IMG/VR virus record: IMGVR_UViG_2859799533_000002
DNA: 12,984 bases
Strand: one strand, 5' to 3'
Origin: a virus
Lineage: Duplodnaviria > Heunggongvirae > Uroviricota > Caudoviricetes
Below, piece by piece: positions 7,363-12,984 of this stretch. The notes beneath the pieces are model-generated. The model ran no database searches. It worked only from the letters and a program-made list of their open reading frames with translations, and was not told the DNA's origin. Every line of letters starts with the position of its first letter. Position 1 is the stretch's first letter. Position numbers and translations under genes: made by a program.

Positions 7363-8147
7363 GTTGGAGTCATTACCGAAAATCTCAATGTATTCCCGTA
7401 TTACTGAGATGGCTTCATCCCGGTTATTAAAACGATAGTGGCTCAGGCTCTCATTTTTCAGCGTTCCCCAGAAGCTTTCCATCGGAGCGTTGTCGTAACA
7501 GTGACCTTTACGCGACATTGATGTTTTCAGACCAGACTGCTCCTGTATGACCCGGTAATCGTATGCGCAGTACTGTGAACCTCGATCAGAGTGGTGGATT
7601 AGCCCGGCAGGTGGGCGCTGGCTCCTGAGCGCCATAAACAGGGCTTTACCTGTCAGCTCTTTTGTCATGCGCTCTCCCATGGCGTAGCCGACAATTTCGC
7701 ACGTATAAACATCTTTGATGCCAGCGAGGTACAACCATCCCTCCTGTGTGGCAACATACGTCAGGTACGCCACCCAGACCTGATTTGGTGCTGTAGGAGC
7801 GAACGTCTGGTTCAGCAGATTTGGCGCAACTGGCAGATTGTGGTTCGGGTTCGTAGTCGCTCTGAACTTGCGTTTCTGCTTACAGCGTAGCCTTAGCTCC
7901 TTACGAAGACGTGCCAGTCGGTCACGACCAACGATGATGCCATTCTCTGCCAGCTCCGTCTGGAGCCGCCGGGTTCCATATGTTTCGCGAGTGCGGATAT
8001 GTGCCACCTTAATCTCCAGTTTTAGCCGCTCATCACTTTGTTTTCTGTCTGAGGGTTCATGCTGTACCCAGTTGTAATAACCGCTCCTGGATACACCAAA
8101 TACCTGACACATCGCTTCAATGGGAAATTGTTGTCGCCATTGTTCGA

Positions 8148-8450
8148 TTAACGCGTATTTTTCAGCGACTCCTGTGCAAAATACGCTGTTGCTTTTTTTA
8201 ATATATCTCGCTCAAGGCGAGCTTCATTTAACGCCTTACGCAGTTGCAGAATTTCAGATTCCAGTTCAGCCACCGTGCGGGAACCAGGAGTACCGAGCCC
8301 TTTTCTGGCGGCGGTAACCCATTGTCCTAAAGTGCCTTCAGGAAGGGATAATCGGGAAGCGCCTTCACTGATCGAAAGTTGATTTTCAAGAACCGTTCTG
8401 ACAGCTTCGGCTTTGAACTCTTTAGAGTAACGTTGGTTTTTTCTGCTCAT
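8148..8450 (-). CDS. IS600 OrfA (100 aa, helix-turn-helix)
   Basis: MSRKNQRYSKEFKAEAVRTVLENQLSISEGASRLSLPEGTLGQWV...; identical to the OrfA of the second IS600 copy at 12682-12984. Confidence 0.85.
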   Translation of the reverse strand: MSRKNQRYSKEFKAEAVRTVLENQLSISEGASRLSLPEGTLGQWVTAARKGLGTPGSRTVAELESEILQLRKALNEARLERDILKKATAYFAQESLKNTR

Positions 8451-8638
8451 TATTAGCTCCTTCTGATGCCATTCTATTTCAGGAAGGAGTGTCCGTTAAA
8501 CTCAGGCTACCTCATATGTCGGGCGCTCATCCGGTATAAGGGATCGCGTTCTTAATATCAATGAAACCGCTGATGTATGGTCTGGTAATGCTGCCAACTT
8601 ACTGATTTAGTGTATGATGGTGTTTTTGAGGTGCTCCA

Positions 8639-8914
8639 GTGGCTTCTGTTTCTATCAGCTGTCCCTCCTGTTCAGCTACTGACGGGGTGGTGCGTAACGG
8701 CAAAAGCACTGCCGGACATCAGCGCTATCTCTGCTCTCACTGCCGTAAAACATGGCAACTGCAGTTCACTTACACCGCTTCTCAACCCGGTACGCACCAG
8801 AAAATTATTGATATGGCCATGAATGGCGTTGGATGCCGGGCAACTGCACGCATTATGGGCGTTAGCCTCAACACGATTTTACGTCACTTAAAAAACTCAG
8901 GCCGCAGTCGGTAA
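8639..8914 (+). CDS. insA: IS1 InsA (canonical isoform)
   Basis: [40 protein letters not shown]...; identical to InsA at 9836-10111. Confidence 0.9.
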
Positions 8915-8940
8915 CCTCGCGCATACAACCGGGCAGTGAT

Positions 8941-9336
8941 GTGATTGTCTGCGCTGAAATGGACGAACAGTGGGGCTACGTCGGTGCTAAATCACGTCAG
9001 CGCTGGCTGTTTTACGCGTATGACAGGATACGGAGGACGGTTGTGGCGCACGTCTTCGGTGAACGCACTCTGGCCACACTGGAGCGTCTTCTGAGCCTGC
9101 TGTCGGCCTTTGAGGTCGTGGTATGGATGACGGATGGCTGGCCGCTGTATGAATCACGCCTGAAGGGAAAGCTGCACGTTATCAGCAAGCGTTACACTCA
9201 GCGCATTGAGCGACATAATCTGAATCTGAGACAACATCTGGCAAGGCTGGGACGGAAGTCACTGTCGTTCTCAAAATCGGTGGAGCTGCATGACAAGGTC
9301 ATCGGGCATTATCTGAACATAAAACACTATCAGTAA
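8941..9336 (+). CDS. insB: IS1 InsB frame (InsAB' by frameshift)
   Basis: InsB homolog; the ORF-track start is downstream of the frameshift site, as expected for an InsAB' fusion. Confidence 0.85.
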
Positions 9337-9835
9337 GTTGGAGTCATTACCGTATGGTCTTATGCTTACGGTAATAATTTGCTAACTCTGTCATCAATAT
9401 ATAACCGAAGAATAATGGTTATCTGCCTGGTGTTTGGTTGCCGACAGCAGGAGGCGAGGCTATCCACCTGGGACGAATGGGATTTAAAAAACTGGGTATG
9501 GACAGTCCCAAAAGAGCACAGCAAAAACAAGGAGGCTATAGTAAGGCCTGTTCCTGACGGAATAAAACAATGGATCGTTAATCTTTACGCAGAAACAAAA
9601 AATCGCGGTTATGTTGTCGGTTGTGCTTTGCAAAGGGCGACAATAACAGGGGCTGCAAACAGAATATGCAGGCGTCTTGGTCATGATACTAATGGCTTGT
9701 GGTGCATACATGATTTCAGGCGCACATTTTCCACTACGCTTAATGATATGGGGGCGGATCCTTATATTGTCGAACTTCTTGGTGATGCTGCCAACTTACT
9801 GATTTAGTGTATGATGGTGTTTTTGAGGTGCTCCA

Positions 9836-10111
9836 GTGGCTTCTGTTTCTATCAGCTGTCCCTCCTGTTCAGCTACTGACGGGGTGGTGCGTAACGGCAA
9901 AAGCACTGCCGGACATCAGCGCTATCTCTGCTCTCACTGCCGTAAAACATGGCAACTGCAGTTCACTTACACCGCTTCTCAACCCGGTACGCACCAGAAA
10001 ATTATTGATATGGCCATGAATGGCGTTGGATGCCGGGCAACTGCACGCATTATGGGCGTTAGCCTCAACACGATTTTACGTCACTTAAAAAACTCAGGCC
10101 GCAGTCGGTAA
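9836..10111 (+). CDS. insA: IS1 InsA
   Basis: 91 aa, canonical InsA sequence. Confidence 0.9.
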
Positions 10112-10155
10112 CCTCGCGCATACAGCCGGGCAGTGACGTCATCGTCTGCGCGGAA

Positions 10156-10533
10156 ATGGACGAACAGTGGGGATACGTCGGGGCTAAATCGCGCCAGCGC
10201 TGGCTGTTTTACGCGTATGACAGGCTCCGGAAGACGGTTGTTGCGCACGTATTCGGTGAACGCACTATGGCGACGCTGGGGCGTCTTATGAGCTTGCTGT
10301 CACCCTTTGACGTGGTGATATGGATGACGGATGGCTGGCCACTGTATGAATCCCGCCTGAAGGGAAAGCTGCACGTAATCAGCAAGCGATATACGCAGCG
10401 AATTGAGCGGCATAACCTGAATCTGAGGCAGCACCTGGCACGGCTGGGACGGAAGTCGCTGTCGTTCTCAAAATCGGTGGAGCTGCATGACAAAGTCATC
10501 GGGCATTATCTGAACATAAAACACTATCAATAA
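10156..10533 (+). CDS. insB: IS1 InsB frame (InsAB' by frameshift)
   Basis: Canonical InsB sequence (..[39 protein letters not shown]..). Confidence 0.85.
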
Positions 10534-10711
10534 GTTGGAGTCATTACCGAACTTCTTTTAGGTCATAAAGTGAAAGGGGTTGCTGGTGTTTACAATAAAA
10601 GCAGGCATATAAAGAAAAAACTTGAGGTGCTTAATATGTGGGTTAATTACCTTAATACGATAGCAGGATTTAACAACAACGTTATCGAGCTTAATAAAGA
10701 GGTGGTGTGAT

Positions 10712-10969
10712 ATGGCAATTTATTCTCTTGTTGATGAAAACGATTTGCGCACAATGAAGGACATTGATCGGTTCATTCGTGAAAAAGAGTGCATAGCACT
10801 TACCACGCTGGCAAACTCAACACGCTGGAAAATGGAGCAGGCAGGTAAATTCCCGCGACGTATCAAGATCGGTGAACGTGCTGCAGGGTATCGACTTTCA
10901 GAGGTTCAGGCATGGATCCGTGGTGAGTGGCATCCTGGATGGAAACCTGGAAAAACAAAACAGCAATAA
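10712..10969 (+). CDS. alpA: AlpA-family phage transcriptional regulator / excisionase-like HTH protein
   Basis: 85 aa; ...LTTLANSTRWKMEQAGKFPRRIKIGERAAGYRLSEVQAWIRG matches the AlpA pattern (short HTH, GKFP, basic, W-R-x-SEV-x-AW); GAGG ribosome-binding site; starts 1 bp after the integrase stop. Confidence 0.8.
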   Translation: MAIYSLVDENDLRTMKDIDRFIREKECIALTTLANSTRWKMEQAGKFPRRIKIGERAAGYRLSEVQAWIRGEWHPGWKPGKTKQQ

Positions 10970-11025: not shown

Positions 11026-11604
11026 ATGAATAAAAATATTGCCGTGACGGGCAAGGGGTACGCTCGTCCAGTGAAAAAATTCTGCGATATTCGTGATCTC
11101 GTCGTTCTGCGCTTTGATAGTGTGAACGTTCGTGTGGTGTATCTGAACGGCGATCCGTGGTTTGTTGCAAAAGATGTTTGTGCTGCGCTGGAACTAACCA
11201 ATTCGCGTACGGCGTTGCAGATGCTTGATGATGATGAAAAGGGAGTAAATTTAACTTACACCCCAGGAGGAAATCAGAATATGAGAATTATCTCTGAGTC
11301 AGGTTTCTACAAACTAATAGCCCGCAGCCGCAAAGCAACGACGCCTGGCATATTTGCTCATCGTTTCAGTAACTGGGTATTCAGAAATGTGATACCAGGT
11401 ATCAGAAAAACGGGGACTTATGGTATCCCGTGGGGTGCATTACAGGATTTTTCCCGCCGTAAAGAGCAATATCAAATAAGTGCCAGCGAGAAGGGGAGGG
11501 AGCTACAGGCATGTAAGCGCAAAAAGCGTGAGCAGGAGGAAGAAGAAAAAACGCTGATACGTGAATATCAGCCTGAGTTTTACTTTGGTAACCGCATTCA
11601 GTGA
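11026..11604 (+). CDS. BRO-N domain protein (prophage antirepressor-like)
   Basis: 192 aa; N-terminal ...VVYLNGDPWFVAKDVCAALELTN...DDDEKG...IISESGFYKLIARSRKATTPGIFAHRFSNWVFRNVIPGIRKTGTY matches the BRO-N pattern; charged, Glu-rich C-terminus. Confidence 0.8.
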   Translation: MNKNIAVTGKGYARPVKKFCDIRDLVVLRFDSVNVRVVYLNGDPWFVAKDVCAALELTNSRTALQMLDDDEKGVNLTYTPGGNQNMRIISESGFYKLIARSRKATTPGIFAHRFSNWVFRNVIPGIRKTGTYGIPWGALQDFSRRKEQYQISASEKGRELQACKRKKREQEEEEKTLIREYQPEFYFGNRIQ

Positions 11605-11613
11605 CAAAACAAA

Positions 11614-11634
11614 GGCGACCGCAAAAGGGTCGCC
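11614..11634 (-). terminator. Putative intrinsic terminator for the leftward two-gene operon
   Basis: GGCGACC-GCAAAAG-GGTCGCC hairpin; on the minus strand it is followed by TTTGTTTTGT; 67 bp downstream of the 59-aa ORF stop. Confidence 0.5.
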
Positions 11635-11700: not shown

Positions 11701-11880
11701 TCAGTCAGATTTGGTTCGTTCCAAGGTTTGCAACGAGAGCTTTTTCCTGTGCTCTTTAAGGAATTTCTCAAGAGCAAACGAACAAGGTGCGAATCTTTCT
11801 GATTCATGTTCATGCGCTATATTTTTGCGTCGTCTCTTACGAGTTGGTGATGGTGTTTTGGTTGATTCTGTGTCGCTCAT
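11701..11880 (-). CDS. Hypothetical 59-aa basic protein (not in the supplied ORF track)
   Basis: Hand translation of the reverse complement: MSDTESTKTPSPTRKRRRKNIAHEHESERFAPCSFALEKFLKEHRKKLSLQTLERTKSD*; ATG at 11878-11880, TGA at 11701-11703; AGGA about 9 nt upstream; 57 bp downstream of and co-oriented with the RHH-like gene; followed by the terminator at 11614-11634. Confidence 0.5.
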   Translation of the reverse strand: MSDTESTKTPSPTRKRRRKNIAHEHESERFAPCSFALEKFLKEHRKKLSLQTLERTKSD

Positions 11881-11937: not shown

Positions 11938-12243
11938 CTATTCATGCTCTTTGACCTTGCGTCGCTGGAGTTCTTCACGCGCGACGGTGACGAGTTGCCC
12001 GATCTCCTCGGCTGCTTTGATGCCGATTTGTTCGACCTTAGCCAGGGCATCCAGTGACGACACAAGGGGATTTTCTCCGCTGCCTTCTGCTTGGCGGCGG
12101 GCCATTTCTCCGCGCATGGCGGTTACGATAAATCCGGCATTGCTTTCACCGTCCAGCTTAACGGATTCCATCCCTTGCATAACATCTAGTGGGACTCTGA
12201 CAGTTGTCAGTTGTGATTTTGCGTTTTTGTTAGCCGTTGCCAT
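11938..12243 (-). CDS. Putative ribbon-helix-helix (Arc/CopG-like) DNA-binding protein with C-terminal extension
   Basis: 101 aa; AGGAG ribosome-binding site 8 nt before the ATG; N-terminal TTVRVPLDVMQGMESVKLDGESNAGFIVTAMRGEMARR fits the strand-helix-helix pattern (compare Arc ...NGRSVNSEIYQRVM). Fold assignment is by pattern only. Confidence 0.55.
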   Translation of the reverse strand: MATANKNAKSQLTTVRVPLDVMQGMESVKLDGESNAGFIVTAMRGEMARRQAEGSGENPLVSSLDALAKVEQIGIKAAEEIGQLVTVAREELQRRKVKEHE

Positions 12244-12304
12244 TTCTGAAACTCCTAATCATCGGTGTGTTTCAGTATACACAAAAAAAGAAATACAAAA
12301 AGCC

Positions 12305-12342
12305 TTGACGTGTGTTTCATGCGCTCATAACATGAAACACAC
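12305..12342 (+). promoter_or_regulatory. Rightward sigma70-like promoter overlapped by a perfect 12-bp inverted-repeat operator
   Basis: TTGACG (12305-12310), 17-bp spacer, TAACAT (12328-12333); inverted repeat GTGTGTTTCATG (12310-12321) / CATGAAACACAC (12331-12342) with 9-bp spacer; a further GTGTGTTTCA half-site at 12265-12274; direct repeat GAAATACAAA at 12290-12299 and 12356-12365. Confidence 0.5.
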
Positions 12343-12433
12343 CGAAAGGATTGTTGAAATACAAAGAGCAACGCCCCGCAGTGCTGGGAACACATACGGG
12401 GCGTCTAACCAACAACGTAAACTAGGAGCCGTT

Positions 12434-12625
12434 ATGGTTGCTGTAAATCATATACCACACCTTGTACACACACAAACGGCCTTTGTGTGGCGTTTTCTGG
12501 CACTGAGTGCCGGAGAATCTCAAATCATCCACGTAACCGCCTGGACGGAACGCGAAGCGCGTAGCCGTTGCCCGTCCGGTTGTGTTGCTGTATTCGCTGC
12601 AAAAATCCGCCAGGGAGTGAGGTAG
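12434..12625 (+). CDS. Small rightward ORF of unknown function; native C-terminus replaced by IS600 after codon 61
   Basis: AGGAG 5 nt upstream of the ATG at 12434; MVAVNHIPHLVHTQTAFVWRFLALSAGESQIIHVTAWTEREARSRCPSGCVAVFAAKIRQG then VR* supplied by the IS600 terminus at 12618; it is the only well-initiated part of the otherwise implausible 354-aa ORF-track ORF. Confidence 0.35.
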   Translation: MVAVNHIPHLVHTQTAFVWRFLALSAGESQIIHVTAWTEREARSRCPSGCVAVFAAKIRQGVR

Positions 12626-12984
12626 CCTGAGTTTAACGGACACTCCTTCCTGAAATAGAATGGCATCAGAAGGAGCTAATAATGAGCAGAAAAAACCAAC
12701 GTTACTCTAAAGAGTTCAAAGCCGAAGCTGTCAGAACGGTTCTTGAAAATCAACTTTCGATCAGTGAAGGCGCTTCCCGATTATCCCTTCCTGAAGGCAC
12801 TTTAGGACAATGGGTTACCGCCGCCAGAAAAGGGCTCGGTACTCCTGGTTCCCGCACGGTGGCTGAACTGGAATCTGAAATTCTGCAACTGCGTAAGGCG
12901 TTAAATGAAGCTCGCCTTGAGCGAGATATATTAAAAAAAGCAACAGCGTATTTTGCACAGGAGTCGCTGAAAAATACGCGTTAA
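12618..12984 (+). mobile_element. IS600 second copy, left end (continues beyond the window)
   Basis: TGAGGTAGCCTGAGTTTAACGGACACTCCTTCCTGAAATAGAATGGCATCAGAAGGAGCTAATAATG is the reverse complement of the 8450-8514 terminus of the first copy. Confidence 0.9.
12682..12984 (+). CDS. IS600 OrfA (100 aa)
   Basis: Identical protein to the ORF at 8148-8450; its stop codon is the last triplet of the window. Confidence 0.9.
   Translation: MSRKNQRYSKEFKAEAVRTVLENQLSISEGASRLSLPEGTLGQWVTAARKGLGTPGSRTVAELESEILQLRKALNEARLERDILKKATAYFAQESLKNTR

Follow-up and report, generated by a model that had tools for sequence, protein, structure and literature searches.

Within the 12,984-base viral stretch IMGVR_UViG_2859799533_000002, the whole of which we call the window, the region between a leftward gene for a 101-aa YlcI/YnfO-family protein and a rightward icd-like gene (12244-12433) carries short repeated sites lying over two predicted back-to-back promoters. 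These sites are probably the operators of the 101-aa protein, a putative ribbon-helix-helix (RHH)-type repressor encoded divergently from the operon that it would control. The region belongs to a relic of a phage-inducible chromosomal island (PICI). A preliminary description, made from the letters of the window alone, had seen here a compact bidirectional switch with the RHH-like protein as its binder, a proposal now supported by the conservation of site positions among related islands and by the joint switching of the protein's predicted recognition strand and the sites.

Repeated sites and the promoters they overlap

At the centre of the region a perfect inverted repeat, GTGTGTTTCATG-N9-CATGAAACACAC (12310-12342), brackets the -10 element of a conserved rightward promoter of sigma-70 type. 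A repeat finder returns its arms (12310-12321 and 12331-12342) as complementary at 12/12 positions across a 9-nt spacer, and a promoter scan places TTGACG (12305), a 17-nt spacer and TAACAT (ending at 12333) on the + strand with 9/12 matches to consensus; the two programs agree with the earlier view that the palindrome is perfect, with its left arm against the -35 and its right arm over the -10. The other repeats first described were recovered by the repeat finder at the same positions: a third exact copy of the site, a 10-mer at 12265-12274, and the direct repeat GAAATACAAA at 12290 and 12356, which extends to 14 nt at 93%. The longer element around the third copy, 12262-12274 (TCGGTGTGTTTCA), is complementary to 12333-12345 at 13/13 positions. 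Of 5000 first-order Markov shuffles of 12244-12433, one contained a perfect inverted repeat of at least 12 nt with a gap of at most 30, and the exact 10-mer, present in three copies within 78 bp, recurs neither elsewhere in the window nor in L001, an intact relative of 25 kb.

For comparison we assembled 10 usable loci from a species-level genome set, 12 found via exact-protein look-ups of diverged homologues and 80 from IMG/VR, together with the model island EcCICFT073 and islands of Escherichia coli O157:H7, giving more than 100 in total. A scan of genome contigs with a single protein query found 0 relatives, and with an alignment query 11 loci; the phage GenBank collection gave 0 DNA matches and 0 protein matches. 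All the collected loci share the same synteny and an intergenic region of ~195 bp. We sorted them into types by the N-terminal strand of the YlcI-like protein (listed below), and in those types that parse cleanly when anchored on the -35 the order of elements is fixed: leftward gene start, site 1, (A/T)TATACA and an inverted site 1' in the leftward half, then TTGAC(N), O2L, a variable spacer, a -10 (TAnnnT in most loci) and O2R in the rightward half. This geometry is kept across at least nine genera, the cleanly parsed types being A, B, C, E, G and I, with 17-nt -35/-10 spacing; the positions of -35 and -10 are kept in the more than 100 loci, and the spacer between them varies. In the window the elements lie as follows:

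11938..12243, - strand: encodes the YlcI/YnfO-family protein of 101 aa that is proposed as repressor; RHH-like domain at about residues 9-55, long C-terminal helix at 59-100
12262..12274, + strand: site 1 (TCGGTGTGTTTCA), exact element copy beside the leftward -10; invariant in 8 type-A loci from 4 genera
12274..12279, - strand: candidate leftward -10 TATACT, read from the sequence; flanked by sites 1 and 1'
12289..12298, - strand: site 1' (AGAAATACAA), degenerate inverted copy, 7/10 to TGAAACACAC; the same as the first GAAATACAAA
12305..12310, + strand: rightward -35 TTGACG, from the promoter scan; TTGAC(N) kept across otherwise diverged types
12310..12321, + strand: O2L, left palindrome arm; one base in common with the -35
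12328..12333, + strand: rightward -10 TAACAT, from the promoter scan; TAnnnT at the same offset in most related loci, the remaining spacer variable
12331..12345, - strand: O2R, right palindrome arm; extends over the last bases of the -10 and the predicted start at ~12340
12355..12364, - strand: second GAAATACAAA, 22 bp from O2R and in phase; overlaps the 5' part of the leader

The centres of the first four sites (12269.5, 12293.5, 12314.5 and 12337.5) are spaced by 24, 21 and 23 bp, and that of the second GAAATACAAA (12359.5) lies +22 bp from O2R in the same phase; spacings of 21-24 bp are close to two helical turns, so that the sites would roughly share one face of the DNA. What is conserved in each site is a core of ~9-10 nt (GTGTGTTTC / GAAACACAC), and the inner ATG/CAT that gives 12-nt arms in the window is not kept in relatives. 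Among the eight type-A loci (Escherichia/Shigella, Xenorhabdus, Photorhabdus and Serratia) there is little or no change in the sites, and the O2 spacer has diverged. Across types, the position of site 1 carries type-specific sequence, a type-specific site begins immediately 3' of the -35 at O2L in every type, and types A, B, C and E have such a site immediately 3' of the -10 at O2R, where types D and F, their register mis-set by the scripted -35 anchor, are not cleanly parsed.

The two copies of GAAATACAAA are not equivalent, the first standing where every relative has a fourth site and the second at the start of a leader RNA element. The degenerate form of site 1' is kept in all type-A loci, and the same position in types B, C and E holds a perfect inverted copy of the type's own site (GTCTTACA, GAATCACA, GAATACC); on this comparison the first GAAATACAAA reads as a conserved, deliberately imperfect site. 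Where the second copy lies, other type-A loci show only partial similarity and types B and C show none, and a fifth site at +23 bp is clear in type I; the second copy may be a weak in-phase fifth site. The flanking direct repeats of the preliminary description are present, then, and are better read as extra weak sites and the beginning of the leader.

A rightward transcription start near 12340 would follow from the promoter geometry. On the other strand, TATACT is the putative -10 of the leftward promoter, and its position holds (A/T)TATACA or ATTACA across operator types.

Predicted recognition strand and operator type

The 101-aa protein matches the YlcI/YnfO family (NCBIfam NF041551; residues 9-50 score 58.1 bits, E 6.5e-16, where the curated cutoff is 30), which is also the label that RefSeq gives to identical and related proteins, and it has the layout of an RHH domain: an N-terminal beta-strand, helix A, a G-x-S/T/N turn and helix B. 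Its top Foldseek match is Arc, and an hhalign comparison with Arc, of low probability, runs in the expected register, with Arc Q9/N11/R13 on residues 12/14/16. Residues 12 and 14 differ by operator type and R16 is invariant; the variable residues align with the base-contacting Q9 and N11 of Arc, indirect support for an RHH dimer that would set an intermolecular two-stranded sheet into the major groove at repeated sites. AF2 models the C-terminal part as a single long helix. A PDB sequence-profile search with the protein returned no RHH, and we do not rely on a weak helix-hairpin-helix-like match of residues 45-86 (the LVSSLDALAKVEQIGIKAAEEIGQLV part) to the Hef (HhH)2 domain (1x2i, E 0.015). 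We consider it probable that the protein is a DNA-binding member of the RHH (Arc/MetJ/CopG) class.

The comparison separates eight strand types and one Arc-like replacement, and the repeated DNA differs with the strand at every copy; a strand type paired with the sites of another type was met with 0 times in the more than 100 loci.

Type A: strand KSQLTTVRVP, site TGTGTTTC (the window type)
Type B: strand KSQSLTARIP, site TGTAAGAC
Type C: strand KSKQISIRIP, site TGTGATTC
Type D: strand RSQMKNIRFP, a different repeated sequence of GTGT/CACAC type, without a single consensus
Type E: strand KSQQLNARFP, site GGTATTCA
Type F: strand KSQIKNVRVP, site GTGTGCAT
Type G (EcCICFT073): strand KSQALKARVP, site GTGGGCCACACC
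Type I: strand KSQMTTIRVP, site GTGAKATAY

Types A and C share ~90% identity over the conserved stretch of the repressor gene that encodes the C-terminal part (~11971-12150) and over the A-rich 12271-12300; what separates them is the strand residues and, in each of the four sites, one T-to-A change at position 5. The O157:H7 islands carry an unrelated, unannotated 57-aa Arc-like RHH gene in place of the YlcI-like one and ATGGTAATTACC twice at the same promoter positions, with leader, icd-like gene and partner open reading frame (ORF) still 93-100% identical. Identity profiles set the limits of the exchanged block inside the repressor gene (~codon 45) and just past O2R. The best explanation is that the strand-coding region and the operators are exchanged between islands as a specificity module, much as immunity regions are.

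From the observed sites, phasing, geometry, promoter elements and co-variation we infer how binding, stoichiometry, repression and autoregulation might work. Four, possibly five, sites of ~9-10 bp (core TGTGTTTC), 21-24 bp apart, would be bound by the repressor, which would recognize DNA through its N-terminal beta-strand and whose long C-terminal helix probably links dimers that sit two turns from each other. With O2L and O2R filled, RNA polymerase would be shut out of the -35, -10 and start of the rightward promoter, which would keep silent the icd-like/replication operon of the satellite, which opens with a cell-division-inhibitor homologue and in intact islands runs to the primase; with sites 1 and 1' filled around the leftward -10, the repressor would also regulate its own gene. 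The preliminary description had named the small rightward ORF as the regulated target: the icd-like ORF is indeed predicted to be regulated, as the first part of a target that is the whole replication operon (icd-like ... DUF4222-primase), cut in the window by IS600. Derepression might come from AlpA-driven read-through, in which the alpA-Bro transcript would extend antisense over the repressor operon; from Bro-N in the role of an antirepressor; or from a helper-phage protein.

Several points weigh against this model. Over-expression of AlpA alone induces replication of EcCICFT073 (PMC6092414), which implies that any repressor must be overcome at a step downstream of AlpA. For the leftward promoter no good -35 is recognizable, and the consensus scan did not pick it up. 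The sites are inverted in types A, B, C and E, types F, G, H and I having direct or self-palindromic copies, and a single stoichiometric model may therefore not suit all types. Finally, the strand codons lie only ~20 bp from site 1, and linkage alone is expected to produce some co-variation; against this last point, the concerted change of all copies and the independent variation of the equally close leader and icd-like gene argue for recognition.

The strongest competing explanation is that the sites serve another protein, whether one of the island (AlpA, the Icd-like product or that of the 59-aa ORF downstream of the repressor gene), one from a helper phage or a host factor, and that the YlcI-like protein has some other role. 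AlpA is the only experimentally established regulator of these islands (PMC6092414), PHROGs calls some Icd-like relatives 'transcriptional repressor', and linkage to the adjacent N-terminal coding region may account for part of the co-variation. Yet the other candidates of the island stay constant or are swapped independently while operators change. The Icd-like protein of the window type is found with operator types A, B and E; AlpA is almost unchanged between loci L013 (type B) and L017 (type D), and L019 and L020 have the same operator and different AlpA proteins; and the homologues of the 59-aa ORF in CFT073 and O157 are nearly identical despite different operators, which excludes the 59-aa protein as the specificity determinant. 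Neither AlpA nor the 59-aa protein, the alternative binders suggested at the outset, tracks operator type. A host factor cannot account for at least eight operator sequences in one species, and where the RHH gene is replaced by another RHH gene the sites change along with it. A helper-encoded binder matched to each operator type is possible; as a whole, we regard a different binder as unlikely.

Somewhat less likely still, the YlcI-like protein would bind the sites chiefly in an activating or architectural role at one of the two promoters, for example to activate its own weak one, and not to repress the rightward one. The absence of a leftward -35 would suit such a role, as would the phasing of sites on one face over ~90 bp, which recalls some architectural complexes; however, in every type the strongest pair of sites lies against the -35 and across the -10 and start of a near-consensus promoter, a geometry of repression, and the products of the operon (a cell-division-inhibitor homologue and a replicase) are of the kind kept off in a quiescent island.

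Two further readings were rejected as very improbable. The palindrome might act as nucleic-acid structure, either an RNA hairpin or terminator in a crossing transcript or a cruciform, and a perfect 12-bp stem with a 9-nt loop would be stable, which is all that its weak miRNA-type matches in Rfam reflect; but the copies are direct or self-palindromic in four types, so pairing between the arms is not conserved, conservation falls instead on the sequence of each copy and on its place relative to the -35/-10, and the predicted rightward transcript begins within the right arm. Equally remote is a set of iterons of the satellite origin, bound by the primase/replicase: regularly phased repeats beside a replication operon look iteron-like, but operator type B occurs with three unrelated replicases (AAA_25, D5_N/DUF5906 or Toprim/DUF927), PICI origins map downstream of pri-rep (PMC6092414; PMC10111431) and the sites are locked to promoter elements.

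The leader RNA, the neighbouring genes and the island

On either side of the proposed operators lie the following features:

11614..11634, - strand: terminator-like hairpin with T-run, from the terminator scan; stem of 7 pairs with 6 G-C, ending in the tail TTTGTTTTGT
11701..11880, - strand: 59-aa basic ORF downstream of the repressor gene; phrog_21027 (function unassigned there)
12371-12404 (hairpin) and 12405-12411 (CTAACCA), + strand: leader hairpin 1, ~12 bp in two stacked stems, and the nearly invariant CTAACCA
12414..12433, + strand: small hairpin at the Shine-Dalgarno sequence; AGGAG at 12424-12428, just 5' of the ATG
12434..12625, + strand: icd-like gene (NCBIfam NF033153, 63.8 bits, E 1.1e-17), first gene of the rightward replication operon
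12469-12489, + strand: terminator-like hairpin CACACAAACGGCCTTTGTGTG then GCGTTTTCTG, ~35 nt into the icd-like coding sequence

The interval of the preliminary description takes in 12371-12433; covariation in 20 diverse loci assigns this stretch to a structured leader RNA separate from the operator. By RNAalifold and pair counts, the leader hairpin has 88.8% of cells paired and 8 pairs with compensatory changes; its covariation score was reached by 0 of 500 shuffles, and slid controls had 24-41% paired. In the same alignment helix 2, the small hairpin, shows 90.9% paired cells and compensatory change at 3 pairs, and in the window it takes a shifted register (AACG/CGTT), read directly from the sequence. 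The leader is present also in L025 (3511-3573) and in L027 (9785-9852), the locus of EcCICFT073, and it is 97.5% identical in O157:H7 islands despite their different operator and repressor, which indicates that it travels with the icd-like gene and not with the operator type.

Searches of leader and palindrome against Rfam, at gathering and permissive thresholds with the window and 16 relatives, returned only chance miRNA-like hairpin matches; there is no match to C4 (RF01695) or isrK (RF01394) in the window, of which 12150-12680 was searched at E up to 10. On the covariation evidence we take 12371-12411 to be a separate leader RNA, apart from the operator and without an Rfam family, which might act in translational control or in processing. 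Assignment of the 12371-12404 hairpin to the C4/CI immunity RNAs was rejected for want of an Rfam match, and we make no claim for two other ideas, a nut-like (boxB-boxA) reading of the leader hairpin with CTCTAACCA and a tRNA-minihelix/RNase P reading of the leader. Only one relative, L017, has C4 (75.8 bits) and isrK (81.4 bits) matches, at 1780-1965 (- strand in the locus) inside a downstream Ash-family gene; in that island a P4-type RNA immunity element accompanies the protein operator. The window lacks both RNA elements because its operon is cut by IS600 right after the icd-like gene.

The last three codons of the icd-like gene have been replaced by IS600 (the intact version in L001 ends ...RQGVSHA): similarity to L001 stops at window position 12621, and similarity to IS600 begins at 12611-12613. 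The hairpin inside the gene is kept in L013, L019/L020 and L025, and could be an attenuator or a mere result of coding for HTQTAFVWRF.

In the leftward direction, the 59-aa ORF is probably the operon partner of the repressor gene, and the hairpin at 11634-11614 would terminate the operon. The ORF has no Pfam or NCBIfam match and belongs to no toxin family; a toxin-antitoxin reading of the pair was rejected on the lack of a toxin family match for the downstream gene. The RHH gene is likewise followed by a homologue in EcCICFT073 (57 aa, L027 9243-9416) and in the O157:H7 island (62 aa, L025 3039-3227), and a small basic partner of 57-62 aa with the motif RKRRRK..HESERFAPC.FALE.FLKE always lies 3' of the repressor gene, whichever RHH type that gene encodes.

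Upstream of the switch the window holds AlpA (10712-10969, Pfam PF05930) and a Bro-N 'antirepressor' (11026-11604). The intact relative L001 (NZ_CP028192, E. coli CFSAN018748), which shares a 99.9% identical stretch with the window, shows the whole island, with the gene order int, alpA, Bro-N, YlcI (reverse), Icd-like and three small ORFs, followed by DUF4222, primase, SSB, capsid, decoration, HTH and terS. It occupies 9870-20000 within the portal gene of a lambdoid prophage, portal fragments remaining at 8840-9721 and 20567-21340; this helper-embedded, Gram-negative PICI organization has been described (PMC10111431). As the mark of such islands we took the order int-alpA-(Bro zone)-replication module (primase)-late genes over ~10-20 kb, co-oriented apart from the regulatory pair, and found the synteny of L001 in 22 other loci and in EcCICFT073. 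What the window keeps of these genes is an int interrupted by IS1, together with alpA, Bro-N, the switch and the icd-like gene. Its island is a relic, IS1 splitting the integrase and IS600 cutting the operon after the icd-like gene, and this copy is probably immobile. Gram-negative PICIs are common, and the module has matches at some level in 1384 of 5426 complete E. coli genomes (about a quarter) and over at least 80% of its length in 375.

Two relatives extend the picture. In EcCICFT073 (L027 9243-10053, NC_004431), for which and for whose relatives helper-phage induction and packaging have been demonstrated (PMC6092414), the YlcI/YnfO gene encodes 59 aa, the RHH domain only, and the operator GTGGGCCACACC occurs twice around a -10 TATAGT; the tags C_RS30120 of this gene, C_RS30125 and C_RS30800 fall outside their neighbours' numbering, which suggests later re-annotation. 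In an O157:H7 island (L025, NZ_CP038366, E. coli O157:H7 F6667) RefSeq annotates an 'Icd-like pseudogene' on the + strand at 2827-3420; the - strand there carries the intact 57-aa Arc-like RHH gene (3270-3443) and the 62-aa partner ORF, and the pseudogene is a probable misannotation masking the repressor.

The remainder of the window (1-10710) contains many insertion sequences, several copies of IS1 as well as IS600 among them, and suggests a Shigella background. We note a second integrase (1-1119), an IS3-family element (1965-3238) with two overlapping transposase ORFs on the - strand, a DNA methylase-like ORF (3150-4325), three tRNA genes (4366-4612) followed by the sRNA STnc100 (4692-4882), and the pieces of the PICI integrase flanking IS1 (9379-9807 and 10570-10710).

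Relation to known regulatory systems

PICIs spread virulence and defence genes. The published regulator of those in Gram-negative bacteria is the activator AlpA, and the 2018 paper on EcCICFT073 called it "unclear" whether a global repressor exists (PMC6092414); our literature search found no paper that gives YlcI/YnfO proteins a function or describes these operators. The kind of switch proposed here is classical and already known, and what appears to be new is the assignment of repressor and operators. A wider reading, which we advance only tentatively and think rather more likely to fail than to hold, would make the YlcI/YnfO RHH protein and its phased operators the missing master repressor of enterobacterial PICIs, in at least nine exchangeable types, overridden by the helper downstream of AlpA, with the leader as a second, post-transcriptional check and a new RNA family; it takes in EcCICFT073 and the O157:H7 island at the same roxA-adjacent site. 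Were it true, exchangeable immunity types could allow satellites in one cell to be regulated independently. The candidate repressor, its operator sequences and the predicted specificity residues are directly transferable to EcCICFT073, and they give the 'y-gene' family YlcI/YnfO its first functional hypothesis; the natural series of matched proteins and operators, including a one-base specificity switch, would serve studies of RHH recognition and the design of orthogonal repressor parts.

Several known systems resemble parts of this arrangement. RHH toxin-antitoxin operons likewise begin a two-gene operon with a small RHH protein, predicted to bind repeats over its own promoter, but here the 59-aa ORF matches no toxin family and the strongest sites control the divergent promoter. 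In the immunity regions of P1 (immI: c4 RNA-icd-ant) and P4 (PLE leader, CI RNA, kil/eta) an icd/kil-type first gene also follows a structured leader; in our case the leader has no C4/isrK match in Rfam, and control of the promoter is assigned to a protein operator set. The Stl/Rpr repressors of SaPIs and Gram-positive PICIs are encoded divergently from an excision/replication operon with the control region between, and Stl is released by binding helper-phage proteins (PMC6092414); no search that we ran found homology between Stl/Rpr and the YlcI/YnfO-family protein, which is a small, putative RHH protein instead.

Besides the Stl/Rpr control region, the switch resembles in function immI of P22, where Mnt and Arc act at Pant/Pmnt: there too small RHH repressors have operators over back-to-back divergent promoters, with the autoregulation that we propose here. 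Mnt combines an N-terminal RHH domain with a C-terminal helical oligomerization domain, a plan resembling the predicted RHH domain and C-terminal helix of the 101-aa protein. The two systems share no significant sequence similarity, however, and differ in spacing (~2 turns here, one in P22), in the number of sites (four or five here, one operator per promoter in P22) and in what is controlled, an antirepressor in P22 and a satellite replication module here. In its mode of evolution the switch recalls lambdoid immunity (cI-OR/OL-cro), in which the recognition part and the operators are likewise swapped together into discrete 'immunity' types of mosaic make-up; there the repressor is of the HTH class and its bearer a phage, whereas here no cro-like counter-repressor was identified, the candidate repressor is of the RHH class and its bearer is a satellite.

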